DNA of 25,134 nucleotides from a virus (taxonomy: Duplodnaviria > Heunggongvirae > Uroviricota > Caudoviricetes): IMG/VR virus record IMGVR_UViG_2737471840_000004, positions 1 through 25,134 of that record; one strand, given 5' to 3'. This document shows, piece after piece, positions 14,905-25,134 of this stretch. The position numbers and the translations under genes were made by a program. The notes beneath the pieces were generated by a model. It made no database searches. It had not been told where the DNA came from and was given only the letters and a program-made list of their open reading frames with translations. Positions within the stretch are counted from its first letter, which is position 1. Each line of letters starts with the position of its first letter.

Positions 14905-14980
14905 TGGTGGCCCCTACCGGACTTGAACCGGTGACCGTGCGATTATGAGTCGCCAGCTCTAACCACTGAGCTAAAGGGCC
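14905..14980 (-). tRNA. tRNA with CAU anticodon (Met, or Ile2 if lysidine-modified)
   Basis: Hand-folded 76-nt cloverleaf: GGCCCTT acceptor, GCTC/GAGC D-stem, anticodon loop CUCAUAA, TTCAAGT T-loop, encoded CCA. From memory it resembles ileX-type tRNA-Ile2. Confidence 0.85.
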
Positions 14981-16607: not shown

Positions 16608-16683
16608 TGGTGCCGATTAACGGACTCGAACCGCTGACATCCTGCTTACAAGGCAGGCGCTCTACCAACTGAGCTAAACCGGC
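16608..16683 (-). tRNA. tRNA-Thr (anticodon UGU)
   Basis: Hand-folded 76-nt cloverleaf: GCCGGTT/AATCGGC acceptor, anticodon stem CCTGC/GCAGG, loop CUUGUAA, TTCGAGT T-loop, encoded CCA. Confidence 0.85.
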
Positions 16684-16685
16684 AT

Positions 16686-16761
16686 TGGCGATGGTGGATG
16701 GATTTGAACCATCGACCCGTTGATTAACAGTCAACCGCTCTAACCGCTGAGCTACACCATC
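16686..16761 (-). tRNA. tRNA-Asn (anticodon GUU)
   Basis: Hand-folded 76-nt cloverleaf: perfect GATGGTG/CACCATC acceptor, anticodon stem GTTGA/TCAAC, loop CUGUUAA, TTCAAAT T-loop, encoded CCA; 2 nt from tRNA-Thr. Confidence 0.85.
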
Positions 16762-22767: not shown

Positions 22768-23148
22768 ATGTCTGATAAAGTAACAGTAAAGCAAACTATC
22801 AACAAAGCGACTTCAATCTACAAAATTGAGCAAATCACTGTTGGCAAGCCAGGATCTGAACAATACCGTCGTGCTTTCGAGCTTGCCGATCAGCTTGGTT
22901 TAAAACACCCGGATTGCATTGAGCATGTATTTCCGACCTATGCTGATGAGCAATGTACTCATGTTCTTACCGAAGAGGATTTTTTCAGCACTGAAGAACG
23001 AGAAGGCGTTGATCGCTGTATTGGTGTGATTTGCTCTTCAGTGAGTTATGAGTTATTCCCTAATGTCCATGAAGATGGTGGTATTGGATACCAATTCCTG
23101 TACGAAGGCGATGAGCTTAAATGTTATCAAGCATCGCCGGAATTTTAG
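22768..23148 (+). CDS. hypothetical protein
   Basis: 126-aa ORF with AGGGA 6 nt upstream; acidic, several Cys; last rightward gene before the apparent chromosomal junction. Confidence 0.5.
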   Translation: MSDKVTVKQTINKATSIYKIEQITVGKPGSEQYRRAFELADQLGLKHPDCIEHVFPTYADEQCTHVLTEEDFFSTEEREGVDRCIGVICSSVSYELFPNVHEDGGIGYQFLYEGDELKCYQASPEF

Positions 23149-23209
23149 GCTTGAAATTGATCATCGCATTCTCCATTCGTTTTGAGTTACAAGAACCCAA
23201 TGCTGGAGG

Positions 23210-23635
23210 TTACGGGAGGGAGTGCATAAACATGGGCTGTGGAAGTGCCCTTTTTGAGCAAATAAGGAAATCCTGAATTGTGTGGGAGAGTGTGTTCAGC
23301 GTGGTGTGCTTGGTCAAGACCGAATGGGCTACGGATTGAGAGGGCACGATGGGTGCATGCTGTCTGTCTGCTGATTGCAGTAAAATTAGTGGGATGACGC
23401 CACAACTCATAAAAAAAGGTTTAATTGGCGGACTGGAGTGCGTCTCGCTAATAAAACTGTATAAATCCGCGATCACCAGATGCGGTTTCCATTGCAAAAT
23501 ATGCTCTTTTGCTAACAGGAGATTATTGATTCCTGATACCAGAAATGAGGAGCTGAACCTGCCAGAATGATTAAGCAAGGCCTCTATCCCTGTGCGGGTA
23601 AAGTGGCACCGGTCAATCACTAAAATTTTAAGCAT
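23210..23635 (-). CDS. RcsA/LuxR-family N-terminal-like domain protein without HTH (possibly truncated)
   Basis: 141-aa ORF; N-terminus LKILVIDRCHFTRTGIEALL resembles the RcsA-type pseudo-receiver start; no C-terminal LuxR helix-turn-helix and no room for one before the next gene. Confidence 0.4.
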   Translation of the reverse strand: MLKILVIDRCHFTRTGIEALLNHSGRFSSSFLVSGINNLLLAKEHILQWKPHLVIADLYSFISETHSSPPIKPFFMSCGVIPLILLQSADRQHAPIVPSQSVAHSVLTKHTTLNTLSHTIQDFLICSKRALPQPMFMHSLP

Positions 23636-23830
23636 AAACGTTTCGCATTCAGAAGAGGGGCAATCGACTTTCTGGTTTCAGAAAGCCCTTCATCATAGAG
23701 AACTCCGATGAGTGCCAAATGCGGGAACTACGCCGCTAATTATGCTTAATTCTTGCTTTTAGCAGGCGGTGAATAAAAAGGTTGAAATTCATTTTCTTCC
23801 GGGCAAAAATGCCATTTCACACATTAGCTT

Positions 23831-23874
23831 TGCAGGACGACCTGCAAACGCTTCTTTCACCGGGGACGGCCCCA
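23831..23874 (+). promoter_or_regulatory. guanidine-II riboswitch (mini-ykkC) upstream of sugE/gdx
   Basis: Two hairpins with ACGR tetraloops: tgcagg-ACGA-cctgca (23831-23846) and gggg-ACGG-cccc (23862-23873), 15-nt linker, then GGAG and ATG at 23892. Confidence 0.6.
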
Positions 23875-23891
23875 TTGTTCTGGAGCCTGAT

Positions 23892-23938
23892 ATGTCCTGG
23901 ATCGTTTTATTAATTGCAGGTTTGCTCGAAGTTGTCTG
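23892..23938 (+). pseudogene. sugE: sugE/gdx 5' fragment, interrupted by IS insertion
   Basis: MSWIVLLIAGLLEVV matches the SugE/Gdx N-terminus; the frame then runs into the IS end GTAAGCG at 23938 where the conserved Trp codon would be. Confidence 0.7.
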
Positions 23939-25134
23939 TAAGCGTCAACGGAGCACCGTATTGACGCTTATTTATTGGTGAGTACTACGTTCCATGGCAG
24001 GAGTTCGTCAACTCGGTTGGAAGGCCATTCCGGCAGTACGCTCAGGATATGGCGCATATACGCTTCCGGATCGATACCGTTCAGACGGCAGGTGCCGATC
24101 AGCCCGTACAACAGTGCTCCACGCTCGCCGCCGTGATCGCTGCCAAAGAACATAAAGTTTTTCTTTCCGAGACAGACTGCACGAAGCGCTCTTTCCGCAG
24201 CATTATTATCCGCCTCCGCCAGACCGTCATCACTGTAATAACAGAGGGCATCCCACTGATTCAGTACATAGCTGAACGCTTCGCCCAGTCTGGATTTTTT
24301 CGACAGCGTACCATTCTTCTCCACCATCCATTCATGCAGCGACGTCAGTAACACTTTGCTTCGCTGCTGCCTGACGGCAAGACGCTCTGACTCCGGTAAT
24401 CCCCGTATTTCATCCTCGATGGCGTACAGTTCACTGATTCGCTTCAGGGCTTCTTCTGCCGTCGCACTTTTGCTGCTGATGTATACATCGTGGATTTTTC
24501 GCCGGGCATGGGCCCAGCACGCAACTTCTGTCAGTGCACCACCTTCACGTTCTGCACTGAACAACCTGTCGTAACCTGTGAACGCATCCGCCTGCAGGAT
24601 ACCCCGGAAGGGGCGGAGGTGTTGCTCCGGGTGTTTCCCCTGCCGGTTCGGCGAGTACGCGAACCAGACCGCTGGAGGAGATGACGAACCCACATTGCGA
24701 TCATCCCGGACATACGTCCAGATACGCCCTGTTTTCGCCTTTTTCTGACCCGGTGCCAGTACCTTTACCGGTGTGTCATCAGTGTGAACCTTGCGGGTGT
24801 TCATTACATAACGGTACAGGGCATCATTCACCGGTGTCATTAACTGGCAGCACGCGTCAACCCAGTTGGAGAGTAAGGCCCGGCTCAGTTCGACACCCTG
24901 GCGGGCAAAGATTTCACTCTGACGATACAGTGGCAGATGTTCGCAGTATTTTCCCGTTAACACGCGGGCAAGTAATCCGGGGCCCGCGATACCACGCTCT
25001 ATCGGGCGGGACGGCGCCGGTGCTTCAACAATACAGTCACATTTTGTACAGGCTTTTTTTACCCGTTCTGTGCGGATCACTTTCAGGGCACTGCTCACCA
25101 GTTCCAGCTGTTCAGCGCTGACTTCCCCCAGATA
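23938..25134. mobile_element. IS66-family insertion sequence, right end only (continues beyond right edge)
   Basis: Terminus begins GTAAGCGTCAACGG (IS66-family ends begin GTAA); contains a minus-strand IS66 transposase ORF whose stop lies 30 bp inside the end. Confidence 0.8.
23968..25134 (-). CDS. IS66-family transposase (TnpC), C-terminal portion
   Basis: Contains CWAHARRK and DDTPVKVLAPGQKKAKTGRIW; the frame stays open upstream of the track start (a GTG at 25098) to the window edge, so the N-terminus is outside the window. Confidence 0.9.
   Translation of the reverse strand, partial: YLGEVSAEQLELVSSALKVIRTERVKKACTKCDCIVEAPAPSRPIERGIAGPGLLARVLTGKYCEHLPLYRQSEIFARQGVELSRALLSNWVDACCQLMTPVNDALYRYVMNTRKVHTDDTPVKVLAPGQKKAKTGRIWTYVRDDRNVGSSSPPAVWFAYSPNRQGKHPEQHLRPFRGILQADAFTGYDRLFSAEREGGALTEVACWAHARRKIHDVYISSKSATAEEALKRISELYAIEDEIRGLPESERLAVRQQRSKVLLTSLHEWMVEKNGTLSKKSRLGEAFSYVLNQWDALCYYSDDGLAEADNNAAERALRAVCLGKKNFMFFGSDHGGERGALLYGLIGTCRLNGIDPEAYMRHILSVLPEWPSNRVDELLPWNVVLTNK

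Follow-up and report, generated by a model that had tools for sequence, protein, structure and literature searches.

At the right-hand end of contig JUDI01000071.1 (E. coli assembly GCA_000798335.1), which was analysed over its whole length of 25,134 nucleotides (hereafter the window), an insertion sequence (IS) follows immediately on the first codons of sugE (gdx), a guanidinium exporter gene preceded by a riboswitch. This locus raises the question of what the IS has left of the exporter and of its control. The original prediction, made from the letters of the window, held that an IS66-family element cuts sugE after codon 15 and leaves a guanidine-II riboswitch intact upstream. We examined this proposal in the window, in the remainder of the same assembly and in related assemblies, and we compared the locus with its uninterrupted form. 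The window was matched to contig JUDI01000071.1 through its unique UpfA-fusion ORF (22768-23148), and the identity of the two was then checked.

The features of the sugE leader and of the 5' part of the gene are as follows.

23782-23810, plus strand: candidate sugE promoter, a weak and consensus-only sigma-70-like match (TTGAAA-17-AAAAAT)
23829-23873, plus strand: guanidine-II (mini-ykkC) riboswitch aptamer (Rfam RF01068, 47.2 bits, E = 1.2e-6)
23882-23885, plus strand: Shine-Dalgarno (SD) sequence GGAG of sugE, read from the sequence, 6 nt 5' of the ATG at 23892
23892-23936, plus strand: sugE/gdx codons 1-15 (MSWIVLLIAGLLEVV), including the central Glu13, identical to SugE WP_000118520.1
23892-23981, plus strand: chimeric ORF of 29 codons (MSWIVLLIAGLLEVVCKRQRSTVLTLIYW) plus stop, the stop at 23979-23981 lying 44 nt into the IS
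23930-23937: left copy of the 8-bp target-site duplication AGTTGTCT, from base 3 of codon 13 to base 1 of codon 16, repeated after the far IS end

An aptamer call requires that the curated gathering score of RF01068 (32 bits) be reached, and the aptamer of the window clearly exceeds it. The two predicted hairpins are both capped by an ACGR tetraloop: P1 (23829-23848) reads UUUGCAGG-ACGA-CCUGCAAA, with the loop ACGA at 23837-23840, and P2 (23862-23873) reads GGGG-ACGG-CCCC, with the loop ACGG at 23866-23869. The aptamer is located directly 5' of the SD and ATG of sugE, an SMR gene of the Gdx type, and GGAG is likewise marked as the SD of E. coli gdx (PMC13064478). The same arrangement of two ACGR hairpins followed by GGAG is found in the guanidine-II riboswitches of E. 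coli gdx and of plasmid sugE(p), and other CMY-2 plasmids carry exactly this aptamer sequence. The riboswitch is thus intact in the window. The number of sigma-70-like sites was not above that of shuffled sequences, and TTGAAA-17-AAAAAT is the only promoter candidate for this leader. A terminator-like match at 23829-23848 was discarded as being hairpin P1 itself, and terminator counts are at the level of shuffled sequences.

According to published work, the gdx guanidine-II riboswitch uncovers the SD and thereby controls translation (PMC13064478; bioRxiv 10.1101/768630), guanidine binding and loop-loop dimerisation turning on translation (PMC13064478). When the leader is folded to minimum free energy, the SD/AUG region is predicted to pair with the 5' half of P2, a structure that is compatible with translational control rather than proof of it. 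The suggestion that the riboswitch and the first 15 codons now drive transcription into the IS end has to be abandoned in this form, because the switch acts on translation. Transcription that starts at the native promoter may still read through into the IS.

Positions 23128-23938 of the window are 100% identical to the sugE/delta-ecnR end of the intact blaCMY-2 module, which is present on >1000 plasmids from E. coli, Salmonella, Klebsiella and others. In the proposed comparison with the uninterrupted locus, the two sequences are identical up to the junction. Identity stops at G23938, the first base of the IS, a position that is also the second base of the Trp codon. Codon 16 reads TGT in the window and TGG (Trp16) in WP_000118520.1; the IS terminus GTAAGCG therefore does lie at the conserved Trp codon, as had been proposed, with the correction that the motif spans 23938-23944 and begins at G23938 instead of 23939. 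The intact SugE reference matches PF00893 at positions 1-93, whereas in the window the four-helix SMR domain is no longer encoded in one frame, the frame being broken after codon 15. An exact search with a 40-mer spanning this near junction gave no match in the genome-contig and viral-contig collections. Neither PLSDB nor the complete E. coli genomes of RefSeq contained either junction of the IS, and the phage collection likewise lacked the near junction. Both junctions are present in a few dozen draft contigs.

The part of the IS that lies in the window comprises two features.

23938-25134, minus strand: ISEc23 (IS66 family), first 1197 of 2532 bp, entered from the tnpC-proximal end (IRR)
23968-25134, minus strand: C-terminal 388 codons of tnpC, the DDE transposase (PF03050 DDE_Tnp_IS66, E = 5e-98; PF13817, E = 2e-15)

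Three things had been expected beyond the right edge of the window: the opposite end of the IS, an 8-bp target duplication and the remaining part of sugE. All three were recovered from the same genome. Contig JUDI01000102.1 (3409 bp) of the same assembly contains the far IS end, AGTTGTCT, the rest of sugE, blc and blaCMY-2, the far junction reading CGCTTAC/AGTTGTCT/GGGCGATTGG. Moreover, three sister contigs span the whole IS, namely L005 (GCA_024271545.1), L006 (GCA_003173395.1) and L007 (SRR26082318). These show 0-2 mismatches to the window over 12,367 bp. In all of them the IS ends with ...CAGTTTACGCTTAC and is followed by AGTTGTCT/GGGCGATTGGCC..., a repeat of window 23930-23937, and then by sugE from Trp16 to the stop, blc and blaCMY-2. 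The 8-bp duplication typical of the IS66 family is thus directly visible on both sides of the element, together with the structure of the locus and the identity of its parts. Over 12.4 kb, the window departs from L005 at just two adjacent bases, 24666-24667 (L005 11899-11900), inside tnpC.

The assignment to the IS66 family, as originally predicted, is confirmed by the PF03050 match and by the GTAAGCG end, which is also that of the reference ISEc23 copy in yehK. The IS DNA of the window is 99.4-99.8% identical to copies annotated by RefSeq as ISEc23; the name used here is taken from this annotation of near-identical copies ('IS66-like element ISEc23' or 'ISEc23 family'). Only tnpC, among the three IS genes, lies in the window, and its N-terminus is beyond the window edge. 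The tnpA-tnpB-tnpC organisation is completed by tnpB (PF05717) and tnpA (PF01527) in L005, L006 and L007 and on JUDI01000102.1. In the sister contigs the full IS measures 2532 bp and has three mismatches to the yehK copy annotated ISEc23. Of the first 24 bases of the terminal inverted repeat (GTAAGCGTCAACGG...), 20 are shared by its two ends, including all of the first eight. The copy in yehK (Ecol_276, NZ_CP018953.1) has the same ends GTAAGCG...CGCTTAC, an 8-bp duplication and the genes tnpA-tnpB-tnpC; however, its duplication is GAATTATT as against AGTTGTCT in sugE, the target gene is different and no target sequence is shared. E. coli genomes that have an ISEc23-like IS carry it in a median of three places each.

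In the window's genome, the two junctions are located on separate short-read contigs, and 483 bp of the multi-copy IS are unbridged. On the basis of the sister assemblies, we infer that both junctions flank one IS copy there as well. A very improbable alternative is an IS-mediated rearrangement (adjacent deletion or inversion) in this genome, after which the two halves of sugE would flank different IS copies. Relatives in which the IS-'sugE junction is joined to dsbC (L013 and L019, see later in the text) give this idea some substance. Against it, the window's own assembly contains both junctions with matching 8-bp repeats, and the flanks show 100% identity to sister contigs that carry the structure without a break, JUDI01000102.1 in particular being 100% identical to L005. 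A complete sugE copy elsewhere combined with the lack of a target duplication would have spoken against the insertion; this combination was not found, because the duplication is present, though a complete copy elsewhere very probably exists.

These observations are best explained if ISEc23 (2532 bp) transposed into the plasmid-borne sugE (gdx) of a Citrobacter-derived blaCMY-2 module, an insertion that would have duplicated the 8 bp AGTTGTCT and split the gene. The upstream side would keep the native leader, with its putative promoter, riboswitch, SD, ATG and 15 codons, and would specify a chimeric peptide of 29 residues, while the downstream side would retain codons 16-105 without promoter, riboswitch, recognisable SD or Glu13. 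The stub ORF overlaps the convergent tnpC stop (23968-23970). Unlike the riboswitches of gdx and sugE(p), the aptamer of the window now precedes only this 29-codon stub, and it would gate, at most, the translation of the stub.

The 3' part of the gene (codons 16-105) lies 2.5 kb downstream and is followed by blc and blaCMY-2. An in-frame ATG in the far IS end opens a hybrid ORF.

L005 13671-13982 and JUDI01000102.1 (L021) 821-1132: hybrid ORF of 103 aa, consisting of the IS-end ATG and sugE codons 16-105

The product (MATYGGQFTLTVVW...) would consist of MATYGGQFTLTVV followed by SugE residues 16-105, and it keeps PF00893 over TM2-TM4. Gene callers pick up the hybrid, and its NCBI name is SugE (e.g. 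EDJ8031737.1 and EFC4382346.1). Deposited as 'quaternary ammonium compound efflux SMR transporter SugE', it constitutes an annotation trap. Neither the hybrid nor the 3' part has Glu13, a Thr being found at that place; Glu13, in TM1, stays with the 15-codon stub. The central glutamates of Gdx proteins bind substrate and protons, and they are conserved and essential (PMC9574504). Reading of the sequence revealed no purine-rich SD before the hybrid ATG, and there is no outward promoter-like site near it, the IS genes being transcribed in the opposite direction. It is thus very unlikely that the split gene still functions through expression of the hybrid and export of guanidinium or quaternary ammonium compounds. 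The in-frame ORF, its choice by gene callers, its NCBI name and the retained domain speak for such a function; however, the new N-terminus MATYGGQFTLTVV replaces MSWIVLLIAGLLEVV and removes Glu13, translation and transcription signals are lacking, and the tnpA promoter points the other way.

The original prediction had considered the exporter presumably inactive unless the rest of the gene was intact across the IS. Its inactivity is what the structure points to, but the reservation falls away: the rest is intact and still cannot give an exporter, because it is separated by 2.5 kb from promoter, leader and start codon and lacks Glu13. We infer that the plasmid-borne copy of the guanidinium exporter is null. 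To judge from the names borne by the exact protein matches, the host is E. coli. Full-length sugE with its leader is found in 5425 of 5426 complete E. coli genomes, nearly always on the chromosome, with ∼78-79% identity to the plasmid copy. Since the gene and leader are present in nearly every complete E. coli genome, a phenotype is unlikely; the host almost certainly keeps a chromosomal gdx and the knock-out is probably silent.

A new role for the stranded leader, in which guanidine-dependent translation or transcription, running antisense into the 3' end of tnpC, would modulate ISEc23 transposition, appears most unlikely. The geometry permits it, the stub ORF (end at 23981) overlapping the tnpC stop and no terminator-like site occurring within the following 400 bp, but there is no evidence of selection, any random insertion in such an orientation gives the same arrangement and the allele is known from no more than a few dozen draft contigs. 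Equally implausible is an assembly artefact, in the form of an erroneous extension of the contig end into a repeated IS: the window does end inside a multi-copy IS, but independent assemblies and raw-read assemblies that traverse the entire element (L005, L006 and L007) contain the identical junction, and the 8-bp target duplication is perfect.

The insertion into sugE is itself carried by a unit that has entered a P1-like replicon, and the following features of the window concern this context.

14908-14980, 16611-16683 and 16689-16761, minus strand: three tRNA genes (Rfam, 64.7-74.5 bits)
22768-23127, plus strand: upfA of P1, truncated by the CMY-2 unit 33 bp short of its natural end, with an ORF that continues into the insert as far as 23148
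23128-23937: end of the IS1294-deltaISEcp1-blaCMY-2-blc-sugE-delta-ecnR unit furthest from IS1294, recognised by identity to >1000 CMY-2 plasmids
23210-23635, minus strand: ecnR remnant, a LuxR-family regulator gene ('LuxR family transcriptional regulator, incomplete' in NZ_CP029743.1)

Window 1-23127 shows 98.1% identity to phage P1 over 94%, and 99.8% to pTZ20_1P, which identifies the backbone as that of a P1-like phage-plasmid (Punavirus); in addition to the tRNA genes it carries dmt, ban and rdgC. Uninterrupted upfA reads AAATGTTAT/GAACATGG in pTZ20_1P, the annotation of this gene being that of P1, P7 and RCS47. The CMY-2 unit, counted without ISEc23 and its duplication, is 5051 bp long, and its far end starts with CAAG at 23128. 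The opposite end of the insert, outside the window, is an IS91-family element (Pfam Y2_Tnp) in L005, where the terminal sequence GTTTTTCAATTTCCTATACGT corresponds to the oriIS of IS1294 as given in PMC7864471 and abuts the GAAC of upfA with no duplication (L005 17930-17960). An apparent 7-bp target duplication at the upfA/unit boundary, suggested by a BLAST overlap, proved to be an alignment artefact when the sequences were read. The CMY-2 module would have reached the P1-like replicon by rolling-circle (one-ended) transposition of IS1294 into GAAC of upfA. The unit lies just upstream of the repA region.

IS1294-deltaISEcp1-blaCMY-2-blc-sugE-ecnR is a known rolling-circle unit (PMC10100771), and CMY-2 units have been described in IncI1, IncK and IncF plasmids (PMC10100771, PMC7864471; Tagg 2014 and Yassine 2015, as cited there). 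The gene order, an oriIS abutting GTTC/GAAC and the lack of a duplication are common to these units and to that of the window, which differs from them by its location in upfA of a P1-like phage-plasmid, by its earlier end and by the interruption of sugE. The copies on an IncC plasmid (L023) and on the IncK plasmid p95 (L003) continue past the CAAG point into IncC backbone. A unit end shared between p95 and the window was ruled out by this comparison with IncC: since p95 continues into IncC backbone, the unit of the window is shorter. Positions 23841-23854 of the window (CCTGCAAACGCTTC) are the reverse complement of IRR' (GAAGCGTTTGCAGG), the alternative right end of ISEcp1 reported for CMY-2 units of IncI1/pMLST12 (PMC7864471); the boundary of the IncI1/pMLST12 units would fall inside hairpin P1, leaving them with an incomplete aptamer. 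The phage-plasmid papers that we checked for it contained no mention of blaCMY-2 as cargo of a P1-like element. The closest relative of the backbone, pTZ20_1P (NZ_MN510447.1), is a P1-F hybrid of 130 kb that is IncY and MOBF/MPF_F conjugative. L005, at 162.9 kb, is larger than P1, and the window's element may accordingly be a hybrid or cointegrate as well, rather than a pure phage-plasmid.

Other IS events have affected the same module. In E. coli AR_0085, plasmid 'unnamed2' (NZ_CP029743.1) has an IS66-family insertion in the same orientation and in the same sugE leader/5' region. It was the sole record of the curated collections with >80% coverage, and it was set aside as a different IS at a different site: the element (NZ_CP029743.1 6473-8998) is 2526 bp long and 89.5% identical to ISEc23, and it lies 66 bp upstream of the window's site, inside hairpin P2, with a duplication GGACGGCC that corresponds to window 23864-23871. 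The riboswitch is split there, and sugE is whole but separated from P1 and the promoter. A 20-bp P2 deletion has been reported (PMC13064478), and by analogy the AR_0085 insertion could render translation of sugE constitutive, provided that transcription from the IS reaches the gene. Two members of the family have entered this region in separate events, 66 bp from each other and in the same orientation, and we considered whether the 5' end of the CMY-2-module sugE, i.e. the hairpins and first codons, is a preferred target of IS66-family elements, a reading that seems improbable to us.

An ISEc23-'sugE junction identical to that of the sister contigs is also present in an IncC-type context with full-length ISEcp1 (L013, GCA_009401305.1, 1496-4040; L019). 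The other IS end abuts dsbC in these two sequences, and 6.4 kb are missing, comprising an Ig-like gene, delta-ecnR, the riboswitch and sugE codons 1-13, a structure that suggests an IS-mediated adjacent deletion. The presence of the sugE::ISEc23 junction in an IncC context places the allele on at least two replicon types (IncC and P1-like). Finally, sugE is disrupted by IS26-mph(A) in IncC CMY-2 plasmids (PMC7864471). As in the window, the passenger sugE has been inactivated by a later IS event and blaCMY-2 has been kept; however, the IS is another one and the downstream part of sugE is lost.

Taken as a whole, the account given here, with a simple insertion of ISEc23, a null plasmid sugE and an IS1294-moved module on a P1-like replicon, is very likely to be correct. 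The original prediction is upheld in its observation and in its interpretation, with the amendments given above. The event amounts to the commonplace knock-out of a passenger gene by an IS; all of its parts are well known and no new mechanism is involved. From a biological point of view the event is minor, a common IS inactivating a passenger gene of a resistance module. The naming of the hybrid ORF as SugE in databases means that gene-presence screens for biocide or guanidine tolerance score a dead allele as present. The sugE::ISEc23 junction is a lineage marker for tracking the CMY-2 unit between an IncC plasmid and a P1-like phage-plasmid. For resistance epidemiology, a P1-like element that carries blaCMY-2 deserves some attention, given that infection is a route by which elements of this type can spread.
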